A DNA stretch of 64,000 nucleotides from an uncultured virus (IMG/VR IMGVR_UViG_3300028805_000071) (IMGVR_UViG_3300028805_000071); one strand, 5' to 3'; shown: positions 7,031 to 64,000, counted from the stretch's first letter. Notes: a model not told the origin generated them from the letters alone. A program made the numbers and translations.

Positions 7031-7038
7031 TTCTAAAA

Positions 7039-8712: not shown

Positions 8713-8730
8713 TTATTTTATCTCCCTTCA

Positions 8731-9712: not shown

Positions 9713-9733
9713 TAAAGCAAACTCCTTTTATTT
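9696..9733. terminator. Intrinsic terminator hairpin
   Basis: AAAGGAGTTTGC / GCAAACTCCTTT immediately after the stop at 9737. Confidence 0.65.
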
Positions 9734-9736
9734 AAC

Positions 9737-21640: not shown

Positions 21641-21658
21641 ACCTTTTCCTCCTTTGTT

Positions 21659-21838: not shown

Positions 21839-21868
21839 TTTTAGTTCTCCTTTTTCTCTGATTTATTT

Positions 21869-44361: not shown

Positions 44362-44377
44362 TTGTTATATATCCTCC

Positions 44378-45685: not shown

Positions 45686-45696
45686 AAATCGCCCTC

Positions 45697-47313: not shown

Positions 47314-47329
47314 CAATTAACCTCCTCAT

Positions 47330-47692: not shown

Positions 47693-47701
47693 TTCATCCC
47701 C

Positions 47702-49429: not shown

Positions 49430-50665
49430 TTAAAACACCTCCCCGGTGTCTAATAGCTTCTTTAAATATTCATCGTCAGCAGCTTCTTGCTCTTCTTCAA
49501 AGTCATTAAATTCATTATAATCTTCTTCAGTAATAAATTCAGTGGAGTCCTCGGCAAAGATTTTTTCCTCAAACTCTTCATCGCTGCCCCAAACCTCATC
49601 TTCAGACACATCTTCTTCTTCAGCAGCTTTCTGTTTATCAGCATTAATATCTTGAACAGCTTTTTCAATTAAAGCGCCAAGGTGCGGGTCTTCAGAAATT
49701 AAACGACGAGTATAATTTTGTAAATCTTCTAATACTCTATCCGCCTTATCCTGCGGTCCATCAGTGTAATAACGAGGAATAAAGCCATCTTGTTCGCAAA
49801 TCATAACCAATTCAGAAACAGCATTTGCGTAATCACCATTTTCTGCTTTATTTTGCGCAGCGGTAAACTTGCCCGAACGCATTAATGCGTCATATACTTT
49901 ACTAACCTTTTGGAATCCATCAACATCACCGATATCCAAAAGCTGGTCCATCTTTAAAGAGGCTTTACAAATCTTCTTTAAAGTATCAATATGGCCAGCA
50001 GCTTGAATATCATATGACTCCATCATGTCATTATAAAGCTGTTCCATTTTAACCCATTCTTCGGGTTTATAAAGAGCACCCCATTTTAAACGTAAATAGG
50101 TAACATCTTCATCAGTTAATCCTAAATCATCGGCAGAAGCCTCAGGAAGTTGAGACCAGCGCTCAACGGCATTCCCTGTTTCTTCTTCATCTTCTTCTGG
50201 CTCTTCATCAGGACGAGGCGGCATTTGAGTTCTGCCTTGTTCAATAGCAAGAGCTATGTCAGCAGCGTCGTATCCTTGGCGACGCATCGTGTCTTTAATT
50301 TTCGCATCCGCTAATTCTTGTAAAAATTCTGTATCTTTCCAACGAAAATCTTTATATTGTTTAATTCTCATAGTGGAAATATACCGACCCAAGATAGTTT
50401 TACCGGAAACGTCTCTGCGATTGCGTCCGTATCGACTTAATAATTTATTTCATTGTTCTGGTATATATGGAATATCAAGTTCCTCTAAAACTGGTTTATA
50501 AGTTTCAGGGTCCCAGTTATCGATATGCATCGTAAGACAGTTCTTACATACATTCATAATTCCATCTTCTGGGTATTTTTCAAGATTATTAGAGCGATAG
50601 AAATTATCGGCACTCATTGTTCGATGACATTTGTCGCAATAGTACAATTTTTCATCTAAACCCAT
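49430..50665 (-). CDS. Zn-finger protein, putative terminase small subunit (411 aa, one TGA=Trp)
   Basis: CDKC...CKNC N-terminus, LDIPYIPEQ[W] (TGA 50450); abuts terL. Confidence 0.65.
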
Positions 50666-50717
50666 ATTTTCGCTCCTTTCTTTTTTTTATAAAAAAAGAG
50701 GTTTTTCACCTCTTTTT

Positions 50718-50763
50718 CTATATATTTTGGCTTTTTTTATATGTTTATTGATGTTTTTTGTCC
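50718..50763 (-). promoter_or_regulatory. Degenerate copy of the late promoter motif
   Basis: GGACAAAAAAC...ATATAG, one nt shorter, upstream of the packaging/head operon. Confidence 0.35.
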
Positions 50764-51798
50764 ATTTCTGCAATTTTTACAAATAGAATAAAATCCGTCT
50801 TTACTTGTATTGTTTTTACTGAAGTAACGTGAGTGCGCCAATTTCACTTTACCGCAACGACTGCAGCGTTTATATTTGCCTTTTTCTTTAAAAGTATAAT
50901 ACCAATTAAGAAAATATTCTTGCGATAAGTCTGAAATTAAATTAGGAATTTTCTTGCGCCATAATGAAGAAATATATTCTAAGGAGTGGGTTGTTCCAAA
51001 TTCTTCGTCTAAAACTTCTTGAATGGCTTGATTAGAGAGTCCATCAATTTTTAATTCAGTAATACGTAAAAGTAAAGGATGCGATTGAAGAGCGGCCCAA
51101 GAAATTGTATCAAAATCTTGCATGATACACCATAAATCACTTGTGGGGTGTTCTCACGCATTTTGCTTTAAATTAGAATAATTGCATAAGATACCAGAGC
51201 AACATCTAGGGTCACATAAACTAATCCCGCTCCAGCGCACGGTCCCATCGGCTTCAACCCATTCTTCACTTTCCAGCTTTACTGTGCTGGGAAGGGAGTA
51301 GTGAATTGAATGGGCATGAATTAAATACTCGCTTTTAATTTGATATTGTTGTTTACGAAAGTCAATTAATGCTTTCTTGGCGAGATACTTATTACGACCG
51401 GTCGCAGTTGCAGAAATCTTTTTCCATGCTTCAATGGCTTCTTGCACCTCCCGCATTCCCGGGAGGGTATCAATATCATGCTGTGTAATTTTTTGTTTTG
51501 GTTGGAAAAGGATGTGCTTATTATCATTTTTAATTGCATAAATACCATCTTCGCCATTCTCGAATTTATCAGCTAATGCTTGATAAGATGTTTCGCGTTT
51601 GTTGATGGTTACCATGCGGTTTTCTGTCAGGATTTTTTTCTGTTTGCGTTCTTCCTTTTCCATGCAGAAAATTAGATAGTCAGCTAACACTTCAAGGTCA
51701 TCATTAGTAAGGTCAGGATTCTCAGCGACAATTTGTTCTACATACTCCTTGCGCGCTAAAGAACTTTCTAATGTGTAATCCAATTTTACTGTTATCAT
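50737..51798 (-). CDS. Putative transcription regulator with sigma-region-4-like HTH and C-terminal Zn finger (353 aa, one TGA=Trp)
   Basis: Join via TGA at 51154; LKIDGLSNQAIQEVL...SLEYISSLW HTH-like; CSRC...CKNC. Confidence 0.6.
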
Positions 51799-51818
51799 TC
51801 AACTACCTCCATAGTAGC

Positions 51819-51883
51819 ATTATAGCAAAAAATATTATGTAAAGCAAAAAAATATTGACAAAATTATAAAAATTTGATATAAT
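51819..51883. promoter_or_regulatory. Divergent sigmaA promoter pair
   Basis: Plus: TTGACA(51855)-17-TATAAT(51878). Minus: TTGCTT(51847)-17-TATAAT(51824), with extended -10 TG. Confidence 0.85.
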
Positions 51884-51920
51884 TTATATATAAAAAATAT
51901 ATTGGGATAAAAATAAAATT

Positions 51921-52124
51921 ATGGAATTAATATCAAAAGAAGAATTAATTAAAGAATTAAAAGGCTCGGTATTAATGATGAGAGATATTCCCACCTGGCC
52001 GCCCACATATGAAGATACTAATATTTTTCATATTATAGATAAAATACCAGTTATTGAAGTAGATGAAGATGTAATGCCTCCCTGCGCATGGGGCGACAGT
52101 TGTGCATACTACACTTCAGAGTAA
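51921..52124 (+). CDS. Small hypothetical protein, MxLISK family
   Basis: First gene after the promoter; paralogous N-terminus. Confidence 0.65.
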   Translation: MELISKEELIKELKGSVLMMRDIPTWPPTYEDTNIFHIIDKIPVIEVDEDVMPPCAWGDSCAYYTSE

Positions 52125-52136
52125 GGAGATAGGTAA

Positions 52137-52349
52137 ATGGCAAAACTTAAATTTGATATACAAGAAAGTTCGCCACTTATTAAATTTGGCGCACTACAAG
52201 AAGGTGAAATATTTTTGTATCATAATGCACCTTTTATAAAAGCAAACGATAATCACGTACCTAATTTAGTTAATGGCTGTTGGACGTTAATTGATGATGA
52301 TGAACTTGTTACTTACGTCAAATCTGCTGAATTAAAATTAACGATATAA
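52137..52349 (+). CDS. Small hypothetical protein
   Basis: RBS AAGGAG. Confidence 0.65.
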   Translation: MAKLKFDIQESSPLIKFGALQEGEIFLYHNAPFIKANDNHVPNLVNGCWTLIDDDELVTYVKSAELKLTI

Positions 52350-52361
52350 TAAGAGGAAAAA

Positions 52362-52625
52362 ATGGATTTAATATCAAAAGCTGAGGCAATTAGCGCAATA
52401 GATAATATGAGAGCGCAGCCGGACGAAGATGGATATTTATTAATTTATAAAATGGATGCAGTAGATAATATTAGATGTTTACCAGTACAAGAACCTAAAC
52501 GAGGCTATTGGATAGTCGATAAAGATAATATTGGATGTTCAGAATGTGATACGTGGTATATATCAAAGTACATGACGCACAGGAACTTTTGTCCTAATTG
52601 CGGAGTATTAATGGAGGAAGAATAA
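52362..52625 (+). CDS. Zn-ribbon protein, MxLISK family
   Basis: CSEC...FCPNCG. Confidence 0.7.
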   Translation: MDLISKAEAISAIDNMRAQPDEDGYLLIYKMDAVDNIRCLPVQEPKRGYWIVDKDNIGCSECDTWYISKYMTHRNFCPNCGVLMEEE

Positions 52626-52626
52626 T

Positions 52627-52833
52627 ATGGAAGTAGCAATAAAACCTTGTCCTTATTGCGACGATGCTTGGGTATATGCTTCTGTTGGAGATTATGGAAG
52701 TGGATATGAAAGTTATGGCTATCGAATGCAGTGCAGATGTGGGTTTGCTTGGAAAACTATCAACTGGCATGATAACAAAGATGAGGCGATAAAGGAATGG
52801 AATGCGGAGGTGTCTAATGATAGCAATTCCTAA
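52627..52833 (+). CDS. Lar (restriction alleviation)-like Zn-binding protein
   Basis: IKPCPYC...CRCG...EAIKEWN pattern. Confidence 0.55.
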   Translation: MEVAIKPCPYCDDAWVYASVGDYGSGYESYGYRMQCRCGFAWKTINWHDNKDEAIKEWNAEVSNDSNS

Positions 52834-53116
52834 TATAGATAAGCCGCAGCGTTGTCAAGAATGCCCGGCACATACATTTAACTATGGATATATTCCAGGT
52901 GACAATGGTTGTCGCATTTTGAAACGTGCATTCAATATAGATAAGTTAGATATAAACCCTTTTAATGAAGTTCTTCCCGATTGCCCGTTAATCGACATTG
53001 TAGAATGTTGGGAATGCGAATATTATAGGGGCCATGAAGAATATTGTGATATAGACCAGTTTGCAAGAGAACATGGTTTTTGCTATAGCGGAAAAAGGAG
53101 AAACAATGGCGTATAA
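52817..53116 (+). CDS. Cys-rich hypothetical protein
   Basis: GGAGG RBS before ATG 52817; PQRCQECP...PDCPL. Confidence 0.65.
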   Translation: MIAIPNIDKPQRCQECPAHTFNYGYIPGDNGCRILKRAFNIDKLDINPFNEVLPDCPLIDIVECWECEYYRGHEEYCDIDQFAREHGFCYSGKRRNNGV

Positions 53117-53291
53117 ACAATTATGTGACATTTGTGGGCAGGAAATCCACGAGGTGTATTTCGACCCAAGGAAATTCAAGTACAAGCGAAGAATATTCGG
53201 CACTTATGAAACGGTGGACATCTGTCAAGAATGTGCAGAAGAAATGGAGAAATACATTAGAGAAAGGAAAAAGAATGGCGCAACTGATTAA
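53106..53291 (+). CDS. Zn-binding hypothetical protein
   Basis: AAGGAG RBS; CDICG...DICQEC. Confidence 0.65.
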   Translation: MAYKQLCDICGQEIHEVYFDPRKFKYKRRIFGTYETVDICQECAEEMEKYIRERKKNGATD

Positions 53292-53784
53292 AGCACCGAG
53301 CCAAGAAGAGCCTAAATACATTTCTGTATTTTTAGCAGGAGGTATCACTAACTGTAAGAATTGGCAGAAAGAAGTCGAGAAATATCTCTCTAATATAAAA
53401 AAGATTTCTGTTATTAACCCACGGAACGATAAATTTGATGTTACAAATGAACAAGCATCAAAGAATCAGATACAGTGGGAGTTTGACCGATTGGAAAAGG
53501 CAGACATATTTAGTATGTACTTTTGCAATAGTGACTCGGTTCAGCCCATATGTCTTTATGAACTTGGAAGAAATATAGTCCGTATGCAGCAGAGATTCCC
53601 AAACGATTGGGAGGACAGAATAATTATAAGCGTAGAAAACGGATACTCAAGAGAGTTCGACGTGATTATGCAGACAAAGTTGTGCGCATCAAGGCTATTA
53701 GTATTTACAAATGCTAGTCCTTATTCTCACGCAGTAAAAATAGATGAGAAAGTAACAAAGATAAGGAGCAACGATGATATATAA
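53275..53784 (+). CDS. Nucleoside 2-deoxyribosyltransferase-like protein
   Basis: SVFLAGGITNCKNWQ, INPR, QIQWE and PICLYELG motifs. Confidence 0.8.
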   Translation: MAQLIKAPSQEEPKYISVFLAGGITNCKNWQKEVEKYLSNIKKISVINPRNDKFDVTNEQASKNQIQWEFDRLEKADIFSMYFCNSDSVQPICLYELGRNIVRMQQRFPNDWEDRIIISVENGYSREFDVIMQTKLCASRLLVFTNASPYSHAVKIDEKVTKIRSNDDI

Positions 53785-54052
53785 GAAATACCAGGCAAAC
53801 CACGAAGAAGAGAAAATAGAAACAGACGGGTGTAATGGATGTAAATATATTTTTGTACAGACCTGGGAAGAACCATGCAGACGATGTAAGCGTACCGCAA
53901 AGGACTTATATGAAAGGGCAAGTAATGAGATAAAACAAACGATAGAGGTATCTATTGAATCACTCAATGCTGATAGAGAAACAAATCGTAAAATATTAGA
54001 CGATATTAAATCAGGCAAAGGATTACCGCCGATAAAAATGGAGGGAAGATAA
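53774..54052 (+). CDS. Cys-containing hypothetical protein
   Basis: CNGCKY...EEPCRRCKR. Confidence 0.65.
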   Translation: MIYKKYQANHEEEKIETDGCNGCKYIFVQTWEEPCRRCKRTAKDLYERASNEIKQTIEVSIESLNADRETNRKILDDIKSGKGLPPIKMEGR

Positions 54053-54330
54053 TGAGCTTAATACTTGAAGGCATAGACCTGCCGAAAGGCGAGACAGCAG
54101 AAGTAATAATTCGCATTCAGCCGAATGGAGATATAAAAGATGGGCACGGAATATTATTAACAGAAACAAAAGCCACGCAGATATCCACCCCACACGGAAG
54201 GTTAATAGATGGCGGCAAACTTGACAAACTTGTTCATGAATGGAGTCCCGTCTATACATATGGAAGAAGTGCATTTACCAGAGCGATAGAAAATGCACCC
54301 ACGATATTAAAAGCAGAAGGAGAATGGTGA
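54052..54330 (+). CDS. Hypothetical protein, HG(R/D)LID...NAPTIL family; ends at TGA
   Basis: TAATG start coupling; TGATG overlap with the next gene. Confidence 0.7.
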   Translation: MSLILEGIDLPKGETAEVIIRIQPNGDIKDGHGILLTETKATQISTPHGRLIDGGKLDKLVHEWSPVYTYGRSAFTRAIENAPTILKAEGEW

Positions 54331-54617
54331 TGTCGTTTATAGTAAAGGGCATTGATTTACCAAAGGATAATAATAGTTTAGACATTCATATTTTTAATGG
54401 AAAAGTGGAAGTAGTACATCCGTTAGACGCTTGTGAATTAGCGCATATTAATGGCGAAGCTATCCAGATTCCTAAAGGCCATGGAGATATTAAAGATGTT
54501 AGTAAATTGCGCGTTAGCGAATATGATTGCGAGGGAGAGGTTAGTTGGTACACTATAAGGGCAGTGGATACGTGGGATATTGAGAATGCTCCAACGATAT
54601 TAGAAAGTGAGAAATAA
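54330..54617 (+). CDS. Hypothetical protein, HG(R/D)LID...NAPTIL family
   Basis: MSFIVKGIDLPK, paralogue of its neighbours. Confidence 0.7.
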   Translation: MSFIVKGIDLPKDNNSLDIHIFNGKVEVVHPLDACELAHINGEAIQIPKGHGDIKDVSKLRVSEYDCEGEVSWYTIRAVDTWDIENAPTILESEK

Positions 54618-54618
54618 G

Positions 54619-54912
54619 ATGCAAATAGTAATAGATATACCTAATAGTGATATTACATCAAAACAAAATATTATAAATCTTGATTTGCATTTTATTGATG
54701 GACATATTTGCGAATGCACCTATCCGTTTAAAGAACTACCCAAAGAACATGGAAAGCTGATAGACGCAGATGAAACAAGAAAGCAATATTACCAATGGAT
54801 GGAAGAGTTATTACAATCAACAACCATTAATATGTCCGCAGAGGCGTTGAGTTTATTATGCGGATTCACTTTAATAAATAATGCCCCGGCAGTATTAGAA
54901 GCAGAGGAGTAA
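54619..54912 (+). CDS. Hypothetical protein, HG(R/D)LID...NAPTIL family
   Basis: HGKLIDAD...NAPAVLEAEE. Confidence 0.7.
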   Translation: MQIVIDIPNSDITSKQNIINLDLHFIDGHICECTYPFKELPKEHGKLIDADETRKQYYQWMEELLQSTTINMSAEALSLLCGFTLINNAPAVLEAEE

Positions 54913-54913
54913 A

Positions 54914-55240
54914 ATGAGTTTAGTAATAAAAGGAATTAATAAACCAAAGGAAGGCGAAATGGTCGTTATAGGAATACAAGCGACAGACGCAGTTATTGAT
55001 ACTTGGGAAACCAGCGAAATAGATGGAGAAGACGTATTTGTAAAACGAGAACATATTAAACACGCTGATATTATTCAAATTCCAGAGGAGCATGGAGATA
55101 TTAAAGATATCAATACTTTTGTAAAAGATAAAAGTATATACGAATGCATTGAAAATGATGTATTTAACAAGAAATATACTTATTTGGTTGGTGTAGGTGC
55201 TATATATAATGCGCCAACGATTTTAGAAGCGGAGGAGTAA
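54914..55240 (+). CDS. Hypothetical protein, HG(R/D)LID...NAPTIL family
   Basis: MSLVIKGINKPK...HGDIKD...NAPTILEAEE. Confidence 0.7.
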   Translation: MSLVIKGINKPKEGEMVVIGIQATDAVIDTWETSEIDGEDVFVKREHIKHADIIQIPEEHGDIKDINTFVKDKSIYECIENDVFNKKYTYLVGVGAIYNAPTILEAEE

Positions 55241-55241
55241 T

Positions 55242-55469
55242 ATGGAAGTAACATGTTGTGACATTTGCCGCAAACCTTTAACTCGTAAAGGATATAAAGA
55301 CCAAGACGGCAAGGATTGGAGAGATATAAGTTTTAGAGAACGCAAATATAGTACAAGGATATTCTCATTTGTAAAAAGCGCATTTGATACCGAATATATA
55401 TCCGTGTGCGGATATTGTCGTTCAGAATTAGCAAAACATAATCCTAGGGAAGGACTAAAGGGAGAATAA
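55242..55469 (+). CDS. Zn-binding hypothetical protein
   Basis: CCDIC...CGYC; GGAGG RBS. Confidence 0.65.
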   Translation: MEVTCCDICRKPLTRKGYKDQDGKDWRDISFRERKYSTRIFSFVKSAFDTEYISVCGYCRSELAKHNPREGLKGE

Positions 55470-55765
55470 TGATAGGATTAATATCCAGAGATGAAGCAAT
55501 TAAACAAATAGACGAAGCGTTTGACGTTGGTGGATGTTATTGTGATAAATATGCAATCCGAGGCATATTAAGAAGCCTTCCCACTATAGAAGAACGCAAA
55601 GAGGGGAGATGGGTAAGAATCACTCAAGACGTGGGTGTAGGACCTCATCTATATAAGTGTAGTGAATGTCATAGAGTTATTGAATATAGTAGTTCCGAAC
55701 TCCCCTGCTTGTTGGAGATGAAGTTTCCTTACTGTCATTGCGGAGCAAAGATGAGAGGAGAATAA
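55469..55765 (+). CDS. Zn-ribbon protein, MxLISR family
   Basis: LPTIEERKEGRW...CSEC...CHCGAKM. Confidence 0.7.
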   Translation: MIGLISRDEAIKQIDEAFDVGGCYCDKYAIRGILRSLPTIEERKEGRWVRITQDVGVGPHLYKCSECHRVIEYSSSELPCLLEMKFPYCHCGAKMRGE

Positions 55766-55766
55766 T

Positions 55767-55841
55767 ATGGGAGACAAGTTTTATAAATATTTCTTTTATA
55801 TTATAGGGGTAATGGCAATCTTGAAATTTATATTAGGATAG
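55767..55841 (+). CDS. 24-aa hydrophobic peptide
   Basis: GAGGAG RBS, MGDKFYKYFFYIIGVMAILKFILG*, fills the gap. Confidence 0.5.
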   Translation: MGDKFYKYFFYIIGVMAILKFILG

Positions 55842-55854
55842 ATAGGAGAATAAT

Positions 55855-56127
55855 ATGGAATTAATATCAAGACAAGACGTAAAGGACACGATTAAACGCA
55901 AACCCTTTTCTTTGATTGATGAACGAATACTAATGAATACCATTGATTCTATCCCCACTGTAGAAGAACGGAAAGAAAGTGAATGGATAATCCTTAAAGA
56001 ACCTACCGGGGGACTACCGAAAAGATGGCGAGTTAAATGTCCGATTTGTCGTAAAACATTAAGAATAAGAGATAAAGAATTATGGGAGTTTTGTCCTTGT
56101 TGTGGAACAAGGATGGGGAAAAAATAA
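55855..56127 (+). CDS. Zn-ribbon protein, MxLISR family
   Basis: IPTVEERKESEW...CPIC...FCPCCG. Confidence 0.7.
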   Translation: MELISRQDVKDTIKRKPFSLIDERILMNTIDSIPTVEERKESEWIILKEPTGGLPKRWRVKCPICRKTLRIRDKELWEFCPCCGTRMGKK

Positions 56128-56128
56128 A

Positions 56129-56377
56129 ATGAAAACAATAGAACAAGTACGTGAAGAAACAAAATTAGGCGATGTATTTATAGGCGAAGTATTTACTTTA
56201 GAAGAATTTATGGAAGAGGTAGACCGTGGCAGCATCACCGAATACGACGGCATTGGCTATTTCCATGATGGGGAAAAAGAAACTGCTATTAGCGTGTTTT
56301 CTCCTATATGGTTTAAATACAACAGCGTCGATGAAGTTATAGAACAATTTCCATATGTAATTTGGTATAATAAATAG
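56129..56377 (+). CDS. Hypothetical protein
   Basis: YDGIGYF...YVIWYNK. Confidence 0.65.
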   Translation: MKTIEQVREETKLGDVFIGEVFTLEEFMEEVDRGSITEYDGIGYFHDGEKETAISVFSPIWFKYNSVDEVIEQFPYVIWYNK

Positions 56378-56386
56378 GAGAATGAT

Positions 56387-56581
56387 ATGATAGAAATTTC
56401 AGAATGGGAATTAGCAAGACTTCGAGAGCATGACAAAAGTTATTATGAATTAAAACAAGAAAAGGAAGATTTATGTTCTGCATTAGCTCCTATATTTAAA
56501 CAACTGATTGAAAACTTAGATGATGAAACTTTATATAAGTTAAAAACAGATATGGGCCAGGCGTGTCTATATTATGACTGA
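56387..56581 (+). CDS. Hypothetical protein ending at TGA (in frame with the next gene)
   Basis: AGGAG RBS. Confidence 0.6.
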   Translation: MIEISEWELARLREHDKSYYELKQEKEDLCSALAPIFKQLIENLDDETLYKLKTDMGQACLYYD

Positions 56582-56605
56582 ACAAAAGTAGATAAGGAAA
56601 ATAAT

Positions 56606-56797
56606 ATGGTAAAAGCAAATGACGTAGAAATTTATATAAAATGGTATGGTTCTAATGGGTTTGGCGAATACAATATTTGGACAGACACAGAGGGCCGCAT
56701 TAAAGGCGATTCTGAGTATATGGACAAAGGCGACAAAAAAGATTTTTTGAAAAGTTTATTTGACTCTATTTTAGAGCAGATTGAGATAGTTGGATAA
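56606..56797 (+). CDS. Hypothetical protein
   Basis: AAGGA RBS. Confidence 0.6.
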   Translation: MVKANDVEIYIKWYGSNGFGEYNIWTDTEGRIKGDSEYMDKGDKKDFLKSLFDSILEQIEIVG

Positions 56798-57018
56798 TGG
56801 GAATAATAGACGATATAAATAAATTGCACCAGGTTGGATTACAGAATGGAGTGGAATATAAGACGTTAAGAATTAATAGGGAATTATTGGATAAACTTGA
56901 AGCGGAGATAAATGGGTTCGTGCAGCCGGCGACGCTAGATAATTCGATAGCGACGTTGTTCGGTATGAAAATAGAGCCAGTAGAGGACTCAGACTATTGT
57001 TATATATTGGAGGATTAG
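56797..57018 (+). CDS. Hypothetical protein
   Basis: TAATG coupling. Confidence 0.6.
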   Translation: MGIIDDINKLHQVGLQNGVEYKTLRINRELLDKLEAEINGFVQPATLDNSIATLFGMKIEPVEDSDYCYILED

Positions 57019-57019
57019 T

Positions 57020-57163
57020 ATGGGGATAGCGTTTTTGATGGCGGTAGGGTTTGCGGCTTTCTTCGTGCTGGGGTATACTCTGGGCCATATGGCAGGGTTT
57101 AACCACGGCCATGAGGCAGGTATCGAGGAAGAACGCGACAGGTATTGCCGGATGGGGCCTTGA
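57020..57163 (+). CDS. Small membrane protein (47 aa) ending at TGA
   Basis: GGAGG RBS; MGIAFLMAVGFAAFFVLGY... Confidence 0.6.
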   Translation: MGIAFLMAVGFAAFFVLGYTLGHMAGFNHGHEAGIEEERDRYCRMGP

Positions 57164-57188
57164 CAAAATTAAAAATAAATGTTATAAT
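57160..57188 (+). promoter_or_regulatory. sigmaA promoter
   Basis: TTGACA-17-TATAAT with extended -10 TG. Confidence 0.85.
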
Positions 57189-57217
57189 TTATATATAAAG
57201 TGAAAGGAAAAAAATAA

Positions 57218-57421
57218 ATGGATAACGGAGCAACAGTAGGAAAAATGTTCTATAGAGGCCAAGAGTACGAGGCTCATCTGGACGCAGAAGGAAACTTATT
57301 GGTGCCGTCATTCTTTAAAGATGGCTCTGAGTTAATTGTGTATTATGTGAAGGTGCCGGTGGAGCTCCTGGAGACCATATATACAATGACCAAGCAGAGA
57401 TATGAACTTGAAAATTTATAA
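57218..57421 (+). CDS. Hypothetical protein
   Basis: Own promoter and AAAGGA RBS. Confidence 0.65.
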   Translation: MDNGATVGKMFYRGQEYEAHLDAEGNLLVPSFFKDGSELIVYYVKVPVELLETIYTMTKQRYELENL

Positions 57422-57436
57422 AAAATTTGATATAAT
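57408..57436 (+). promoter_or_regulatory. sigmaA promoter with no downstream ORF
   Basis: TTGAAA-17-TATAAT with extended -10 TG. Confidence 0.7.
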
Positions 57437-57442
57437 ATTAAT

Positions 57443-57555
57443 ATAAAGAAGAGAAAATTTAAATATAAAAAAACCAAACTCTTTACCTTTCTTACACTCT
57501 CTTCTTCCCAGTTGCTGGGAGTTGGGCGGGGCCGCAGGCTCCGCCTTTTTGTTTT
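57443..57555 (+). ncRNA. Candidate small RNA with a pyrimidine-rich anti-RBS tract
   Basis: Bounded by the promoter at 57408 and terminator GGCGGGGCC-GCA-GGCTCCGCC-TTTTT; no ORF or RBS. Confidence 0.45.
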
Positions 57556-57592
57556 GGTAAAACTTGGGGTCGACGGGAGGGGGAGACAATAA

Positions 57593-57606
57593 CGAACACG
57601 CGTTCT
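57593..57606. promoter_or_regulatory. LexA (Cheo/SOS) box
   Basis: CGAACACGCGTTCT versus the Firmicute consensus CGAACRNRYGTTCG. Confidence 0.6.
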
Positions 57607-57699
57607 TTTTTTGTTTTTTTCCCAAAAAACACCCCCCAGTATATACGTAGATATACCGGTGGCTCGCGCGAGCCAGCGAGGTAGGACCCGGGGGGTCGG

Positions 57700-58905
57700 G
57701 CCCTAAACAAACAAACAAGCTAATGACACACAGGACATTAAACAAAATAAATTTTGTTAAAAGATAAGATTAAATACCAAAAGCAAACATAAATCAATTG
57801 TTTAAATAAATAAATAACAATCAATACAATACTATAATGCATAGTCATCCACTACTGCTGCTCTACCCATGGCATGGCACAGTATACCAATAGTAGATGA
57901 CACACAACACACTACTGAGAGCTTGGCGCTGGGGCGGTCACCGTTGACGAGCGTGAAAAGTGCTGATTCGCGCAAGGAGAAGCTTTGCAGAAAAAATCGC
58001 ACAACAACACAACAAATGTAATACAATCATTTATCCTAAAACTCTAATACACCACGACAGTAGGGGCAATGCATGCACACACAGACAGAGGGGCAGCCAG
58101 GCTGGCCAGCCACAGCCAACGAGCAAACAACGAACATACAAAGAACAATAGATTAACACACAAGCAACACACAACACACAACACACACATAATGATATAA
58201 TAATATATATAATATATATACATACACATAGGTATAGGGATGCCATGGGGTAGGGGTAGGGGGCGTGGTGTGGTAGGCACACAGTATAGTAACACAATAA
58301 GATAGATAATAAACATATAATATAATACACAAACAGTAAACAGTATTCTATCTATTGGTTTCAGTATGGGTATGAGATATGTGGTAATGTAGTAATAATA
58401 CCTAGACACGTAAGCTGTAGTGTATAGCTACACAGTACACAAGCAGGACACAACGTGTAACACAAAGGGTGAGACACACATAGATACATACACATACACA
58501 CACAACAACAGACACACAGACAATCAACAACACAAGCAACACATACACAACAACAGATAGATAGATACACAACATACAATAATACATACACACAAAGAGA
58601 TAGATAAGAACAAGACAATAGACAACACAAGCAATCAACCAACAGACAAAGAGAAGATAGAATAAAAGATAAAAGAAAATAAATAGAAATAAGATTTGTT
58701 ATTGTGTTTTAGTTTCAGGTACAGTGTATGGTATAGGTAGTATACCAAGGGGTAGTCTGCAGGTCTACTGGACAGGGTAGGTGCAGTGGGGCATAGACCT
58801 AATGGCCAACAGAGAGACAGAGAGAGAAAGAAGATAAAGAGATAATAAAGTATTAACAACAACACAAAGAATAATAATTGATATTTATATATGATATATT
58901 GCATG
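57700..58905. repeat. Strand-biased low-complexity CA/ACAA/AGAT-rich non-coding tract
   Basis: Imperfect ACAC, ACAA and AGAT runs; no TT dinucleotide on the plus strand between 58362 and 58694. Confidence 0.8.
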
Positions 58906-58990
58906 GCTGTGGGGCTGGGCCTGCCCCCGCGCCGCCCCCGGCCATGGCGGCGCGAGTTTTCGCTGTATACAGCCCGTGCATAAAATTTAA

Positions 58991-59166
58991 CGCTTCACCG
59001 CGGTAAAGTGGTAACGCGGTGAACTCCTGAAATTCAGCACTTTAACGCGGTGAAGTGCGAAAGACTTTAGCGCGGTGAAGCGTTAACGCAGTAAAGCAAA
59101 TTTTTGTTTTTTGCGATAAAAAGCAAAAATTTTACTTTTTCCGCCATGCTTTAGTGAGTTAAAGCG
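58991..59166. promoter_or_regulatory. Cluster of HisR (TrpR-family)-like 20-bp palindromes
   Basis: YRCTTYA-N6-TRAAGYR at 58991, 59038, 59063, 59079 and 59147. Confidence 0.6.
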
Positions 59167-59180
59167 TTGAAGTCCGTCGC

Positions 59181-59198
59181 TTGTTAAAAATTTAACAA
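59181..59198. promoter_or_regulatory. Rex operator
   Basis: TTGTTAA-AAAT-TTAACAA, matching the clostridial Rex consensus TTGTTAA-N4-TTAACAA. Confidence 0.7.
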
Positions 59199-59199
59199 T

Positions 59200-59233
59200 G
59201 TTATAAGTATGCAAAAAAATGTATAAAAAAACT
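59200..59233. promoter_or_regulatory. Tandem ARG-box-like pair
   Basis: GTTATAAGTATGCA-N6-TGTATAAAAAAACT. Confidence 0.4.
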
Positions 59234-59315
59234 TTTAAAAAAAGTATTGACAAATTGCTAAAGGTATGATAATATATAATTACAAAAGGGAGAGAAAACA
59301 AAGAGAGGTAACAAG

Positions 59316-59564
59316 ATGTATACAGTAACAAATGACGCAAAGGCAAAGACAATCAACGAAAACACAAAGTATGTTGCAATCGCACCGCTTCTTGAAACTG
59401 TTATAAATATGTCAAAGGACAAGGCTCCTTACACAGTGCTTACTGTTGGAGCAACACTCGAAGAGGTTGAGATGTTCGCTTCTTCCGATTGGATGATGGC
59501 TCACGCAATCGTTGATGGTTGGTGGACAATCGTAACAATCGATGAAATAACAATCAATAACTAA
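59316..59564 (+). CDS. Early hypothetical protein (82 aa)
   Basis: Promoter, GAGAGG RBS, terminator at 59563-59586. Confidence 0.75.
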   Translation: MYTVTNDAKAKTINENTKYVAIAPLLETVINMSKDKAPYTVLTVGATLEEVEMFASSDWMMAHAIVDGWWTIVTIDEITINN

Positions 59565-59598
59565 AAAAGGCGAAAGCCTTTTTTTATTTGCGTCGTGG

Positions 59599-59612
59599 CG
59601 AACATACGTTCG
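59599..59612. promoter_or_regulatory. LexA (Cheo/SOS) box
   Basis: CGAACATACGTTCG, exact consensus match. Confidence 0.8.
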
Positions 59613-59629
59613 GTTAGTCACCGCTAACC
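59612..59629. promoter_or_regulatory. GGTTAG-N6-CTAACC palindrome, DtxR/MntR-family-like operator
   Basis: GGTTAGTCACCGCTAACC abutting the LexA box. Confidence 0.4.
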
Positions 59630-59660
59630 AATAGGCACATTCCCCTCTTCCATCATCCTC

Positions 59661-59689
59661 ATTATAACATAAAACCGCAAGGCTGTCAA
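59661..59689 (-). promoter_or_regulatory. Minus-strand sigmaA promoter
   Basis: TTGACA-17-TATAAT with TG, reading towards the LexA box. Confidence 0.75.
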
Positions 59690-59782
59690 TAGAAAAAATA
59701 AAAAAAATTTTTTTAAAAAAGTATTGACAAACCCTCTTCAGTGTGCTATCATTATTATAGAAAGAAGAGAGGAGAACAAACA

Positions 59783-60214
59783 ATGAGAATTTGGTTAGAC
59801 ATGGACGGAACAATCGCAGACCTTTACGGAGTAGAAAACTGGCTCCCTATGTTAGAAGCAGAAGACCCTACACCTTACGCAATCGCAAGACCGCTTGTGA
59901 GAATGAACATTCTCGCAAGATTGTTAAATAAGGCACAGAGAAACGGCTATGAAATTTGCATCGTGTCCGCACTCTCAAAGAACGGCTCCGCAGAGTATGG
60001 GCAGAAAGTAATCAACGCAAAGTTAACTTGGTTACAGACCCACCTCGCAAGCGTAAAGTTTGACGAAATCCAGTTCGTATCTTACACCTACACAAAGAAC
60101 AATGTAAATAGTGGAAATGATATTCTTTTCGATGATGAAGAGAGACACCTCACCGCTTGGACGGGTGAAGCCTACAACGCAAGAAACATTTTAGAGGTTT
60201 TAAGAAACCTCTAA
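59783..60214 (+). CDS. HAD-superfamily 5'(3')-nucleotidase-like protein (143 aa)
   Basis: WLDMDGTIAD motif I, K..WL, ILFDD motif IV. Confidence 0.8.
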   Translation: MRIWLDMDGTIADLYGVENWLPMLEAEDPTPYAIARPLVRMNILARLLNKAQRNGYEICIVSALSKNGSAEYGQKVINAKLTWLQTHLASVKFDEIQFVSYTYTKNNVNSGNDILFDDEERHLTAWTGEAYNARNILEVLRNL

Positions 60215-60294
60215 TTTTTTTTATAAAAAAGGCTTGACAGAACACCAAAAGGATGATATAATAAAGGTACAGAAAACGAAAGGAGACCAAAGCA

Positions 60295-60468
60295 ATGAAG
60301 GAAGTTATAGGAATTGTAATCTTAAGTTTAATCGTTTTATTGGTAGTCGCCTCAATCGCATTTTTACTGTGGTTTGGCGTTTCATGGGCTTCGATAATGT
60401 TTCAAAATCTCGACATGGACGAGCCCACGGTATTAAGTTCGTGGAATCTATTTTCATTCATTGGATAG
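60295..60468 (+). CDS. Small membrane protein (57 aa)
   Basis: AAGGAG RBS; MKEVIGIVILSLIVLLVVASIAFLLWFG...; terminator follows. Confidence 0.7.
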   Translation: MKEVIGIVILSLIVLLVVASIAFLLWFGVSWASIMFQNLDMDEPTVLSSWNLFSFIG

Positions 60469-60500
60469 GAAAGAGGGCAAAGCCCTCTTTTTTCTGTTGT

Positions 60501-60617
60501 CGGTCAACTATTCCGAAAATTAATTTTTAGGGAATAGTTGGGCTTTTGGGCTTTTGGCAAGGGTTTTTTCTGTCAAGGAACTATTCCCAAAATTAGTTTT
60601 TAAGGAATAGTTGACCG
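60501..60617. promoter_or_regulatory. Duplicated CodY-box-like palindromic element
   Basis: Two copies of AACTATTCCNAAAATTANTTTT(T)ANGGAATAGTT; 3-4 mismatches to AATTTTCWGAAAATT. Confidence 0.45.
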
Positions 60618-60626
60618 ACCCCAATT

Positions 60627-60646
60627 CACTTTAGCGAATTAAAGCG
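60627..60646. promoter_or_regulatory. HisR-like palindrome
   Basis: CACTTTAGCGAATTAAAGCG. Confidence 0.6.
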
Positions 60647-60728
60647 TGAAAGAAAAAATTTTTAAAAAAGGGCTTGACAAACAAGCCTTTTTCTGTTATA
60701 CTATAATCAGAAAGAGAGGTAAAGACAA

Positions 60729-60899
60729 ATGACTACATTCGCACTTAACATTTTAATCATAACAGTAATACTTTTAATGGGTTTCGCCATTGGAATGATA
60801 ATTATTGAACTAATCAAAACCGCAAAGTTTCGCAAAGAGGTAAAAGCCACAAACGAGGCTTTAAAAGATTACGCAGAACATTGTTTGAAAAAATTTTAA
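60729..60899 (+). CDS. Small membrane protein (56 aa)
   Basis: Promoter plus GAGAGG RBS; MTTFALNILIITVILLMGF... Confidence 0.7.
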   Translation: MTTFALNILIITVILLMGFAIGMIIIELIKTAKFRKEVKATNEALKDYAEHCLKKF

Positions 60900-60970
60900 A
60901 AAAAGGGGTTGACAAACCCTTTTTTTCATGCTATAATAAACTCAAGAAAAGACAAAGAGAGGTAAACAAA

Positions 60971-61111
60971 ATGAAGTATTACACAGTACAGTGGTTCGAC
61001 AAAGAACTTGGAGAAATCTACAACACAATCACAAGCGAAAAGGGAGTTGCTTACATGCAGAAGCACCCCGAAGTGTATGACATTCTTCTGTTAGATATTT
61101 ACACCGAATAA
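60971..61111 (+). CDS. Early hypothetical protein (46 aa)
   Basis: Promoter plus GAGAGG RBS. Confidence 0.7.
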   Translation: MKYYTVQWFDKELGEIYNTITSEKGVAYMQKHPEVYDILLLDIYTE

Positions 61112-61176
61112 AAAAAAGGGGTTGACATTCAACCCCTTTTCTGTTATAATAAAGACAGAAAGAGAGGTAAAGACAA

Positions 61177-61374
61177 ATGACAATCCACAATATTGATAAC
61201 ACATTCTATGACTCAGAAATGAGCGTAAAAGAACTTATTGAATACTTAAAAGAAAACTATGACGAAAATAATAGGGTCACTTGGTTTATGCAAAAGACTC
61301 TTCCAAACAGAGATTTTCATAGAATTTACATTGATTCAGATGATTATTACATTGAAAAAGAAGAAGAGAGGTAA
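61177..61374 (+). CDS. Early hypothetical protein (65 aa)
   Basis: Promoter plus GAGAGG RBS; MSVKELIEYL similar to the gene at 61597. Confidence 0.7.
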   Translation: MTIHNIDNTFYDSEMSVKELIEYLKENYDENNRVTWFMQKTLPNRDFHRIYIDSDDYYIEKEEER

Positions 61375-61379
61375 ATAAA

Positions 61380-61538
61380 ATGACAATTTACGGACTTAAT
61401 AAGAAAGCAACAAAAGGCTTATACATCGTATACACAATAACTGAAGGAAGAAAGTATTTCTTGAGTGCTTGGAGAACAGAAGAAGACGCAAACAAAAGAG
61501 CAAAAAAATATTTTGGAAAAGTTTGGAAAAACTGTTGA
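61380..61538 (+). CDS. Early basic hypothetical protein (52 aa) ending at TGA
   Basis: GAGAGG RBS; MTIYGLNKKAT...KVWKNC; stop lies inside the next TTGACA. Confidence 0.65.
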   Translation: MTIYGLNKKATKGLYIVYTITEGRKYFLSAWRTEEDANKRAKKYFGKVWKNC

Positions 61539-61596
61539 CAAACCCCCAAAAGAGTGATATAATAAAGGTACAAAGAGAGAAAGAGAGGAAATAAAA

Positions 61597-61782
61597 ATGA
61601 CAGTAAAGGAATTAATCACAAGACTTGAAGCAGTAGAAAATAAAGATTTGGATGTAGTCATCAATAGCGATGATTACGGCAATGTAGTTGTTACCTATGT
61701 CTCGGAAATAGAAGTATACTACGGAAGAGATGAGGACACGGGTTGGTACTGTGATACAAGAGAATGTGTTTTACTCGAATAA
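61597..61782 (+). CDS. Early hypothetical protein (61 aa)
   Basis: MTVKELITRLE; promoter plus RBS. Confidence 0.7.
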   Translation: MTVKELITRLEAVENKDLDVVINSDDYGNVVVTYVSEIEVYYGRDEDTGWYCDTRECVLLE

Positions 61783-61859
61783 AAAATTTTAAAAAGGGCT
61801 TGACAGAGCCCTTTTTCTATGATATAATAAAGATAAGAAAAGAGAAAGGAAAGAAAAAA

Positions 61860-62027
61860 ATGTTTATACTTGGAATTTTAGTAGGATGGTTTATAGTTTA
61901 TTTAGGAGCAACAATTTGTTGCAACGCTTTTGATAAGGAAGAGTGGATGTCCTATTGGGTTGTTGGCCCGTTTCTCCCTCTTCATTTAGGAATCGGCTAT
62001 ATATATAATAAGTTAAGAAAAAAATAA
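61860..62027 (+). CDS. Small membrane protein (55 aa)
   Basis: Promoter plus RBS; hydrophobic. Confidence 0.65.
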   Translation: MFILGILVGWFIVYLGATICCNAFDKEEWMSYWVVGPFLPLHLGIGYIYNKLRKK

Positions 62028-62097
62028 AAAAAGGGTTGACAAACCAACAGAAAGATGTTATAATAAACTCAAGAAAAGAGAAAGAGAGGAAAAAACA

Positions 62098-62235
62098 ATG
62101 GACGAAAAAGCAAAAAGACTTGCAGACATTATGTTTGAAGAAGATGAATACAGAGACGCTAATGATATGGAACTGATGTATCACACAAAAGAAGATTTTG
62201 AAGCAGAGAAAAGAGAAAGAGAGGTAAAGAAATGA
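62098..62235 (+). CDS. Acidic hypothetical protein (45 aa) ending at TGA
   Basis: Promoter plus RBS; ATGA overlap with the gene at 62232. Confidence 0.7.
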   Translation: MDEKAKRLADIMFEEDEYRDANDMELMYHTKEDFEAEKREREVKK

Positions 62236-62426
62236 ATCCCAAGAACTTATTTGTAGGCAAGGCGACCGAAGCCATAAACGAAATCGATGAAATGAACAAC
62301 GAGTGCGTTGAAGAGTATGGCGACAAGTATGCGGATTGTTTCCCCGCATTAGCCACCAAGAGGGTAGAAATTGACGGCAAGACCTACAGAATGAAAATCG
62401 AAATCACCCTCACCGAAATAAAGTAA
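62232..62426 (+). CDS. Early hypothetical protein (64 aa)
   Basis: GAGAGG RBS. Confidence 0.7.
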   Translation: MNPKNLFVGKATEAINEIDEMNNECVEEYGDKYADCFPALATKRVEIDGKTYRMKIEITLTEIK

Positions 62427-62483
62427 AAATTACATTTTGACTGTATTTGTTTTCATTTGCCCCCTCAAGCGAGGGGGCTCCTT

Positions 62484-62541
62484 TCTATTTTTATACATTT
62501 GGATGTATAAATATTTATGCATGCGTGTGCATATTCATTCG
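62484..62541. promoter_or_regulatory. Two interleaved tandem ARG-box-like pairs
   Basis: TCTATTTTTATACA-N6-TGTATAAATATTTA and TAAATATTTATGCA-N6-TGCATATTCATTCG. Confidence 0.55.
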
Positions 62542-62704
62542 TGCTTTCACACGGTGAAGTGTGAAAGCAAATTTTTATTTTTTGCGATAAAACGCAAAAT
62601 TTTGCCAATCCCATCAGCCGCGCGCCAGTGGCCCAGGCGAGCGGAGTTTGATTTTTTTGGGGCTTTGGCAAAATTTTACCCTAAAGCGACAGAAAGCGAA
62701 AATT

Positions 62705-62758
62705 TGCTTTAATTCACTAAAGTGCTGAAGTGTTAGCACTCGCACCCAAGAGTGCTAA
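62705..62758. promoter_or_regulatory. HisR-like box followed by a CIRCE-like element
   Basis: TGCTTTAATTCACTAAAGTG (62705), then TTAGCACTC-N8-GAGTGCTAA (62733-62758; perfect arms, spacer one short of the canonical N9). Confidence 0.7.
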
Positions 62759-62866
62759 TAACAAAAAATTTTTTTCGTAAATTTTTAAAAAGTGCTTGCA
62801 TTTGGGTCTGTGATGTGGTAATATACTTATAGAGGGGAACGCAAATAATAGAGAGGAGAAAAGACA

Positions 62867-62989
62867 ATGACATACGAAGAAATCAAGGCTTACATCAACA
62901 ACAAAATCGCCAATGGCGAACCGCTTCACGGATATGCGAGGGAACTCGCTATCGAGTTGGCTCTCAATGAAAAAGAGAGAGCCAACTAA
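62867..62989 (+). CDS. Early hypothetical protein (40 aa)
   Basis: Promoter plus GAGGAG RBS. Confidence 0.65.
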   Translation: MTYEEIKAYINNKIANGEPLHGYARELAIELALNEKERAN

Positions 62990-63089
62990 AAAAGAGAAAA
63001 AAAATTCTCTTTTTTTTAAAAAAGTACTTGCAATCTGCTTTGTAATGTGGTAATATAATATCGGGGGGAACAAGAGAGGAGAAAATAAA

Positions 63090-63494
63090 ATGACTTACTA
63101 CTTCGATATGGACGGCGTACTCGCTAACTTCCACAAGGCATATAAAGAAAACAAGGCAGTTGCACTCGACAAGGACGCAATGGCAAACCTCGAACCTTTT
63201 GAAGAGAATGTGGCTCTCGTAAATAACCTCATCTCTACTGGAATCAAGGTTTACATCCTCACCAAAGCCGCCAACGAAGATGGCAAGGCTGGAAAAATCG
63301 AGTGGCTTGCAAAGTACATCCCCGCTCTTGACCTTGAAAACTTCATTTGCATCGTAGGGGCTGGCAAGAAAATCGACTACATCAGAGAGGATGGAATCCT
63401 CGTTGATGACGATATGAAGAACCTCACCCCTTGGGCAAAGGCTGGCTTCGGCACCTACTTCGTAGAGGAGAAGGGTGCGGTCATCACCTTCTAA
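63090..63494 (+). CDS. HAD-superfamily 5'(3')-nucleotidase-like protein (134 aa)
   Basis: YFDMDGVLAN, KIEWL, ILVDD. Confidence 0.8.
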   Translation: MTYYFDMDGVLANFHKAYKENKAVALDKDAMANLEPFEENVALVNNLISTGIKVYILTKAANEDGKAGKIEWLAKYIPALDLENFICIVGAGKKIDYIREDGILVDDDMKNLTPWAKAGFGTYFVEEKGAVITF

Positions 63495-63520
63495 GGCAAA
63501 CCAACGGACGGGCAACCGTC

Positions 63521-63569
63521 CGTATTTTTATTCATGCTGATGTATAAAAATACAGCGAACATACGTTCG
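63521..63569. promoter_or_regulatory. Tandem ARG boxes abutting a LexA box
   Basis: CGTATTTTTATTCA-N6-TGTATAAAAATACA, then CGAACATACGTTCG (63556-63569). Confidence 0.75.
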
Positions 63570-63721
63570 GAAAATTTTACATTTGTGCGATAAAATGCAA
63601 AATTTTGCCAAAGTCCAGCTCGCCGCCAGCGGCAGCCGGCGGCGAGATTTTTATTTTTTGCGGGATTGCGGAAAAAATTTGCGTTTTTGCGGAAAAAATG
63701 CGAAAAAACGCGATTTCCCAA

Positions 63722-63776
63722 AACTTTCACACACTAAAGCGTTAAAGTGTTAGCACTCACCCCAATCGGGTGCTAA
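63722..63776. promoter_or_regulatory. HisR-like box followed by CIRCE
   Basis: AACTTTCACACACTAAAGCG (63722), then TTAGCACTC-N9-GGGTGCTAA (63750-63776, one mismatch). Confidence 0.7.
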
Positions 63777-63847
63777 CAGAAAAAAATTTTTTAAAAAATT
63801 TTAAAAAAAGTATTGACATTTCCAAGAGAGTATGGTAATATATAATT

Positions 63848-63960
63848 GTTCCAAGGGAGAGAGCGGAAACGAGTACTCCCTCAGGTTTTACAAGGTTAGT
63901 CACCGCGGGTTTTGACTGCAACACAAACCGAAACGATAGAGTGGCCACTCGAAAAATTTT
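63848..63960 (+). ncRNA. Candidate short non-coding transcript
   Basis: Promoter at 63813 is followed by no start codon; stems GGGAG/CTCCC and GAGTGGCCACTC before the next promoter. Confidence 0.35.
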
Positions 63961-64000
63961 TAAAAAACCCTTGACAGATAGCACCAAGTGTGCTACAATA

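Follow-up and report, generated by a model that had tools for sequence, protein, structure and literature searches.

Can one phage genome be written in two genetic codes, with TGA ending genes in one block and encoding tryptophan in another? The question is raised by a 64,000-nucleotide (nt) stretch of DNA from the uncultured virus IMGVR_UViG_3300028805_000071, the whole of which is referred to here as the window. A first-pass annotation had proposed that the plus-strand genes near its right end are early genes translated in the standard code of the host, and that the minus-strand genes are late genes which need a phage-induced code switch. As judged from homologous proteins, TGA is a tryptophan codon in the late genes; the early genes carry no in-frame TGA and use this codon to end five genes, and consensus promoters are distributed asymmetrically between the strands. 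We consider it likely that the virus is a large tailed phage whose host is a standard-code Firmicute, probably among the Clostridia, and that it uses the standard code early and TGA suppression late. The two blocks are:

3-51798, minus strand: late structural block of 29 genes (16,699 codons)
51921-63494, plus strand: early gene block of 33 small genes (2642 codons), few of which have known relatives

The late block contains the genes for packaging and virion assembly, and further virion proteins were also identified in this minus-strand module by PHROGs:

47702-49429, minus strand: TerL (PHROGs match)
47330-47692, minus strand: HNH endonuclease (PHROGs match)
45697-47316, minus strand: portal (PHROGs match)
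27477-35192, minus strand: tape-measure protein of 2571 amino acids (aa), with 8 in-frame TGA codons
22131-27359, minus strand: tail protein of 1742 aa, with 11 in-frame TGA codons
9737-14305, minus strand: tail protein with 6 in-frame TGA codons

Under translation table 11 the minus strand is fragmented, and admitting only TAA and TAG as stops yields fused open reading frames (ORFs) of 1522, 1106, 1045, 1742 and 2571 aa. The late genes, counted without ORF 42150-42680 and a small minus-strand ORF within the 21641-21868 gap, hold 47 in-frame TGA codons, spread over 13 of the 29 genes, and 169 TGG codons, so that TGA makes up 22% (47/216) of the codons in tryptophan positions. These genes end at TAA (24) or TAG (4) and never at TGA (0/28). 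To assign a meaning to the in-frame codon, the 13 TGA-containing genes were translated with X at TGA and aligned to relatives that use other codes, among them G003 (192 kb, standard code), G008 (182 kb, TAG-recoded, with the amber suppressor tRNA Sup-CTA) and phAss-1. Single uninterrupted alignments traversed the TGA positions, and 36 of the 47 sites could be aligned, giving 83 cells that include 35 W, 11 F, 9 Y, 5 gaps and 1 G; W was present in at least one relative at 16 of the 36 sites. The predominance of tryptophan in these columns indicates that TGA is read as tryptophan in the late genes, as in code 4. Code 25, in which TGA encodes glycine, was rejected, as G occupied only one of the 83 cells. 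The most strongly recoded gene of the window, 35914-37260 on the minus strand, uses TGA for all 8 of its tryptophan codons and TGG for none; it has no assigned function and sits just upstream of the tape-measure gene.

Our re-annotation of the plus strand, based on Shine-Dalgarno sites, promoters and a second strain (G002, 82-98% identical across window positions 11296-61694), gave a different picture for the early genes. Their tryptophan codons comprise 51 TGG and no TGA, bearing out the earlier remark that no internal TGA occurs in the plus-strand genes, and their stops are 25 TAA, 3 TAG and 5 TGA. TGA is common once these genes are read out of frame, with 49 occurrences in one alternative frame and 114 in the other. 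Set against the late counts of 47 TGA and 169 TGG, the early 0 of 51 gives a Fisher p of 2.2e-5. The absence of early TGA is not a circular product of gene calling, since calling ORFs with TAA and TAG as the only stops barely alters the plus-strand gene set, yet fuses the minus-strand fragments into products of 1045-2571 aa. A metagenomic contig, L168, which is 97% identical to window positions 62201-63956 and extends the sequence to the right by about 7.4 kb, supplies a further 18 early genes. These have 31 TGG codons, no in-frame TGA and one more TGA stop, bringing the early count to 0 TGA among 82 tryptophan codons (combined p = 6.7e-8). The same TGA-free pattern is repeated in G002, including genes that it does not share with the window. 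The boundary between the two usages lies at 51799-51920 and coincides with the switch of coding strand, and GC skew and AT skew both reverse sign at about 52 kb of the window. An apparent in-frame TGA in the G002 homologue of 55469-55765 proved to be an alignment artefact, the G002 ORF being intact under code 11, and a reading of TAG as glutamine in the plus-strand block was rejected after it produced no convincing longer genes.

The five early genes that had been reported to end at TGA were all confirmed, and the stop-start strings described with them (TGATG at 54328-54332, TAATG at 54050, 55467 and 56795, and ATGA at 62232-62235) are in place:

54328-54330, plus strand: TGA stop of gene 54052-54330, overlapping the ATG of the next paralogue
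56579-56581, plus strand: TGA stop of gene 56387-56581, with the next gene, 56606-56797, in the same frame
57161-57163, plus strand: TGA stop of gene 57020-57163, within the TTGACA -35 box of promoter 57160-57188
61536-61538, plus strand: TGA stop of gene 61380-61538, within the TTGACA -35 box of promoter 61535-61563
62233-62235, plus strand: TGA stop of gene 62098-62235, overlapping the start of gene 62232-62426

Paralogues, homologues and the second strain support the view that these codons are real gene ends. Read-through at 56579 would add 71 codons and create a 136-aa fusion with gene 56606-56797, which has its own Shine-Dalgarno site and ATG; in a search of 1.84 billion representative proteins, none of 62 relatives spanned both halves of 56387-56797. 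One relative of 64 aa stops at the same residue as 56387-56581, another of 63 aa begins at the second ATG, and the family to which the C-terminal half belongs consists of free-standing proteins, mostly 70-90 aa long. At 54328, read-through would add three codons before a TAG. The gene that ends there is one of four paralogues, the other three of which (54330-54617, 54607-54912 and 54914-55240) end 4 residues past a NAP(T/A)(I/V)L motif; gene 54052-54330 ends 6 residues past it. Read-through would add 2 codons at 57161, 7 at 61536 and 6 at 62233, and the chance that all four short-extension TGA codons would lie so near the ends of their ORFs, were they randomly placed sense codons, is about 4.5e-5. 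The stops at 57161 and 61536 are to be read with the qualification that each TGA doubles as part of the next promoter's -35 box. All four of the TGA stops covered by G002 are TGA in that strain too, and TGA-TAA closes the G002 homologue of 52802-53116, a gene that ends at TAA in the window.

Comparison of the two strains adds a measure of how freely the codons exchange. Late genes of the window and G002 differ by 10 TGA-to-TGG and 5 TGG-to-TGA replacements, with 16 TGA and 104 TGG conserved, and the early genes show no TGA/TGG swap among 44 aligned TGG codons (Fisher p = 0.024), which suggests that TGA and TGG are interchangeable as synonyms in the late genes only. Stop-codon usage follows the same division. 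In the standard-code relative G003, TGA ends 45 of 215 crude ORFs (21%); the early TGA stops (5/33) are similar to this baseline, and at a rate of 21% the late figure of 0/28 has a probability of 0.0014.

Promoters of a single type are concentrated in the early block and its immediate surroundings:

51855-63999, plus strand: ten sigma-A-type promoters with a TG-extended -10 element, starting at 51855, 57160, 60234, 60674, 60909, 61122, 61535, 61800, 62036 and 63971

Eight of these ten plus-strand promoters are perfect TTGACA-17-TATAAT sequences, L168 contributes 13 further promoters of the kind, and the same pattern has no match on either strand in the 51.8-kb late region (1-51800). Among GenBank phages, the portal protein is closest to that of an unannotated 12-kb fragment (48.7% identity) and next to that of phAss-1 (40.5%), with which the window has late genes in common and whose TerL is 44% identical; a Clostridia host was predicted for phAss-1 by its authors (PMC10607447). 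Among the relatives, those with a 58%-identical portal follow the standard code, and others recode TAG. Two class-I release-factor genes are present in a Clostridia metagenome-assembled genome (MAG), which also contains a contig of a related phage whose terminase is 65% identical. When window positions 44001-64000 were searched against 401 genomes of the order to which this MAG belongs, the matches listed included hundreds of 37-80-nt matches, at 80-97% identity, to the phage promoter regions (the one inspected lay directly upstream of a bacterial tRNA gene) and otherwise only phage-like contigs in three genomes, and among them there was no spacer-type link to a host. Taken together, the sigma-A promoters, the codes of the relatives and the release factors of the MAG are indirect evidence that favours a standard-code, Clostridia-type host, as the first-pass annotation had supposed from the operators; a direct assignment by spacer match did not follow. 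Two observations in this connection stand apart. The sole perfect TTGACA-17-TATAAT promoter on the minus strand, at 59661-59689, points into the bidirectional terminator that follows gene 59316-59564 and may drive a short antisense transcript. In a Clostridia MAG contig (L084, 1760-4332) the match to the 575-aa terminase stretches over 2.5 kb, and the gene of this relative may carry an inserted element, for example an intron or a homing endonuclease.

A late code of this kind calls for a decoder of UGA, and we looked for one in all the DNA within reach. In the window, ARAGORN found no tRNA, Rfam gave no family of any kind at its gathering score, and the domain searches were likewise empty, in agreement with the initial reading that no suppressor tRNA or release factor is visible there. 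Relaxed and intron modes of ARAGORN gave nothing at sensible thresholds (42 lowest-threshold hits, many with very long predicted introns, were treated as junk), and at E <= 1 the segment 57100-59400 gave four weak Rfam matches, none of them a tRNA. G001, a near-identical viral record that covers window positions 2805-64000, has no tRNA either. Among larger relatives, G003, G007 and G008 encode 37, 21 and 33 tRNAs, all three sets including Trp-CCA and that of G008 including Sup-CTA, and none contains Sup-TCA. At 80 loci around a conserved gene that adjoins tRNA arrays we counted 36 Sup-CTA, one Sup-TTA and no Sup-TCA, and RF-1 and class-Ib tRNA-synthetase (TrpRS) domains were found in none of the five phage records searched. 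The extension of L168 past the right end of the window carries a tRNA-Tyr and a tRNA-like element (Rfam tRNA, 33.9 bits), the latter of which is not a decoder, as its 'anticodon' arm ends in a 4-nt loop. G001 is rated 36% complete, so the window represents about one third of the phage genome and about two thirds lie outside the DNA reached. An exact-pattern scan of viral contigs for the right end of the window gave no match, and a 124-kb contig considered as a candidate for the remaining genome was rejected because it is a separate, complete phage. Sup-TCA tRNAs have been reported in only 15-35% of TGA-recoded phage genomes (Borges et al., 10.1101/2021.08.26.457843; Mgcod, 10.1101/2022.06.29.495998; Cook et al.). 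As observations beside this search, the tRNA array of a 190-kb relative contains a tRNA with a TTA anticodon, of the ochre-suppressor type (L088, 1109-1181), and in L168, at 1770-3600, strong consensus promoters precede the tRNA-Tyr and the tRNA-like element. The same interval holds several GC-rich, ORF-less stretches of 200-300 nt with a common conserved core, which suggests that they are early-expressed non-coding RNAs.

These results are consistent with the following course of infection. Host RNA polymerase with sigma-A would transcribe the plus-strand block from its many consensus promoters right after infection, and, since the early genes lack in-frame TGA, an unmodified host ribosome would read them correctly, with TGA acting as the terminator of five. 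Production of full-length terminase, portal, tape-measure and tail proteins would then need efficient decoding of UGA as tryptophan, given the 47 in-frame TGA codons, and this decoding would most likely be provided by a phage-supplied suppressor, for example a tRNA with anticodon UCA, encoded outside the window. Of the earlier proposal of an early standard code and a late switch, the tryptophan meaning of late TGA and the readability of the early genes in the standard code are borne out; a phage-induced switch that follows early expression goes beyond these data and is inferred, as are the host's genetic code and the existence and origin of a suppressor.

Several findings weigh against this scheme or soften it. 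None of the records examined, whether the window, G001, G002, the L168 extension or the relatives, yielded a suppressor tRNA, RF1 or TrpRS, so that the search for tRNA-Trp(UCA), RF1 and TrpRS recommended in the first-pass annotation came back empty for the third of the genome within reach. Avoidance of TGA is not confined to the plus strand, as 16 of the 29 minus-strand genes also lack it and a TGA-free run at 200-9919 on that strand spans 43 tryptophan codons; the proposed split by strand thus holds for the position of the boundary, and does not extend to every gene on either side. Four of the five early TGA ends have a TAA or TAG within 2-7 codons downstream, and because read-through there would add only 2, 3, 6 or 7 residues, sequence cannot prove termination in vivo at these four. 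Conservation of the TGA stops in G002 carries little weight, given an identity of 93-98% in the DNA around them; the end of the 64-aa relative of 56387-56581 may be a standard-code call at a homologous TGA, and the direct contrast between early and late TGA stops reaches only p = 0.056. The notion that all five genes are always read through is nonetheless opposed at 56579 by the absence of any fused protein among the 62 relatives.

These reservations lend some substance to an arrangement in which UGA is read as tryptophan to some degree throughout infection, the early block tolerates either reading, no hard switch exists and the TGA ends of early genes have no regulatory role. Pfennig et al. 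(10.1101/2022.06.29.495998) describe the same pattern and propose a 'soft switch', and as the choice of code leaves 28 of the 33 early proteins unchanged and alters four more by only 2-7 C-terminal residues, the sequence fits a soft switch as well as a hard one. Constant suppression would, however, fuse two genes that are separate in 62 of 62 relatives, and it sits poorly with early TGA stops at a frequency near that of a standard-code relative (5/33 against 45/215) when late genes have none, and with 0 of 44 early TGG codons swapped for TGA against 15 late swaps; we regard it as rather unlikely. A Mycoplasma-like host that itself uses code 4, with every TGA read as tryptophan and the five early genes running on to the next TAA or TAG, would explain the clear tryptophan meaning of late TGA, and Mycoplasma or Spiroplasma are the hosts of most phage isolates for which table 4 is predicted (Cook et al.). 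Such a host is hard to reconcile with a TGA share of 0/51 in the early genes (0/82 with L168) and only 22% in the late ones, since TGA is reported to account for 80-90% of tryptophan codons in code-4 bacteria (10.1101/2022.06.29.495998). It is opposed as well by close relatives that are standard-code or TAG-recoded with amber suppressor tRNAs, by the related phage contig in a Clostridia MAG with two class-I release-factor genes, and by homologues and paralogues that stop at the TGA positions, which together make it extremely improbable.

It is also conceivable that the TGA-free blocks reflect history and not selection, in which case they would reveal little about decoding in the infected cell, the early genes and the following distal block being recent standard-code imports or genes that have not yet drifted:

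3-9585, minus strand: four distal tail/fibre-like genes with 42 TGG and no TGA

G002 lacks a counterpart of this distal DNA, a sign that a tail module may have been exchanged, and the four genes look like a host-range module of standard-code origin acquired in that way. The early region, for its part, is a mosaic between strains, with genes gained and lost, and recoding is described as arising across short evolutionary distances (Borges et al., 10.1101/2021.08.26.457843). Yet the early genes specific to G002 and all 18 extra early genes of L168 are TGA-free as well, and exchange between TGA and TGG is ongoing between strains in the late genes with none in the early ones; history as the explanation for the TGA-free blocks seems very unlikely to us. 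Early reading in the standard code, followed by suppression of UGA in the late genes, accounts for the same observations and is the reading we prefer.

A further possibility under that reading concerns the gene nearest the boundary on the late side:

50737-51798, minus strand: first minus-strand gene, matching PHROG 5767 ('sigma factor') at E = 8.8e-47

A dedicated sigma-A-like promoter (TTGCTT, 17 nt, TGcTATAAT) and a terminator-like hairpin accompany this gene, which could for that reason be transcribed early. Its single in-frame TGA, at codon 215 (51154-51156), corresponds to W in G003, and database entries from relatives of 87-88% identity include truncated gene calls of 214 aa, which implies that the codon-215 TGA is conserved in the lineage. 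The protein has no match in Pfam, NCBIfam or PDB sequence searches, and Foldseek returned nothing from the PDB at E <= 0.001. In an AlphaFold2 model (predicted local distance difference test score, 76.5; predicted template modelling score, 0.45), residues 205-297 align to the region-3/4 parts of SigH, WhiG and SigB chains at Z scores of 6.5-7.0, values that are common for helical proteins, and the TGA just precedes the sigma-region-4-like helices and a C-terminal zinc ribbon. The code switch might on this basis act upstream of late transcription, with the full-length regulator made only under UGA suppression, an idea that we consider doubtful. If it were true, recoding would serve as a translational licence for a transcription programme through this regulator, and read-through at 56579 after the switch would yield a 136-aa late isoform of two early ORFs.

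The layout described here, and its proposed role in timing late expression, have been published for other phages, and what the window adds is a TGA-to-tryptophan lineage in the family related to phAss-1. Borges et al. (10.1101/2021.08.26.457843) report that recoded stop codons are concentrated in structural and lysis genes and propose that, until the switch, translation of early genes follows the host's standard code; in their data a suppressor tRNA often went undetected, being found in 35% of code-4 genomes. Their 'Agate' phages, as described, resemble the present one in being large, in infecting Firmicutes by prediction and in having TGA as tryptophan concentrated in structural genes, and like alternatively coded gut phages generally they have other modules free of in-frame stops and close relatives with either the standard code or a recoded TAG. 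The likeness is drawn from the published description of the clade. The window differs in that its early block uses TGA as a gene end five times and in that a putative late regulator carries a TGA. 'Jade' phages, described in the same work, carry a code-change module of Sup-TCA tRNA, TrpRS and RF1, which is the kind of machinery that would be required here; searches of the window and of the relatives examined found none of these three components. In the block-wise recoded phages analysed with Mgcod (Pfennig, Lomsadze and Borodovsky, 10.1101/2022.06.29.495998), the code changes where the coding strand does, the early block can usually be read in both codes (dual-coded), and only 3 of 17 complete genomes that combine codes 11 and 4 have a Sup-TCA tRNA. 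The strand-linked change of code, the nearly dual-coded early block and a late block that needs the alternative code are all features of the window as well. That set consists mostly of crAss-like phages of Bacteroidetes, and the window represents a Firmicute-type, siphovirus-like lineage.

phAss-1 is a 136-kb gut phage in which TAG is recoded and three suppressor tRNAs are present (PMC10607447). It resembles the phage of the window in its large genome, the shared late genes and its predicted Clostridia host, and differs in the recoded codon, which is TAG there and TGA here. The listed members of the proposed genus Phassvirus are 82.7-86.4% identical (PMC10607447), and the present virus falls outside that genus: when the early block (51900-62500) was compared by megablast with the phage collection there was no match and hence no similarity to phAss-1 at the nucleotide level, the portal is only 40.5% identical as a protein, and the recoded codon is TGA. 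Phage code 15 has been validated by metaproteomics (Peters et al.), and TGA recoding outside code-4 hosts is reported to be rare, at 46 viral operational taxonomic units, or 0.08%, in UHGV (Cook et al.). The window thus offers a clean, internally controlled example of block-wise TGA-to-tryptophan recoding in a large phage of Firmicute type, and because other members of the family are standard-code or TAG-recoded, the group should be useful for studying how phages change code. For annotation the consequence is immediate, in that neither table 11 nor table 4 alone yields the correct proteins.

The few early genes with recognizable products, together with a small gene found during re-annotation, are:

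52627-52833, plus strand: Lar-like protein
53106-53291, plus strand: zinc-ribbon gene of 61 aa, filling the gap before the 53275 start
53275-53784, plus strand: nucleoside 2-deoxyribosyltransferase-like protein
59783-60214, plus strand: NT5C-like nucleotidase
63090-63494, plus strand: NT5C-like nucleotidase

The third of these had been called as ORF 53125-53784, and two in-frame TAG codons in G002 place its true start at 53275. Four tandem paralogous early genes at 54052-55240 (plus strand) carry IDLPK...HG..ID...NAPTILEAE motifs, and G002 has a fifth copy. A 1.8-kb, A/C-rich, low-complexity stretch without a convincing ORF, at 57422-59250, has no Rfam match and falls inside a 97%-identical block common to G002. 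It is followed by four direct and inverted copies of a motif of about 17 nt, with the core AACGCGGTGAAG, at 58987-59096, and the stretch may serve as an origin, hold several binding sites for a regulator or specify non-coding RNA. On the minus strand, residues 1594-1733 of the tail protein encoded at 22131-27359 form a C-terminal domain resembling Hint/intein-splicing domains, its match to Pfam Intein_splicing (E = 2.5e-6) lying below the curated cut-off. Finally, ORF 42150-42680 (minus strand) overlaps the end of the capsid-like gene 42536-43675 in a different frame and has no start codon between its codons 45 and 62, and it may represent a C-terminal extension of the capsid protein made by frameshifting.

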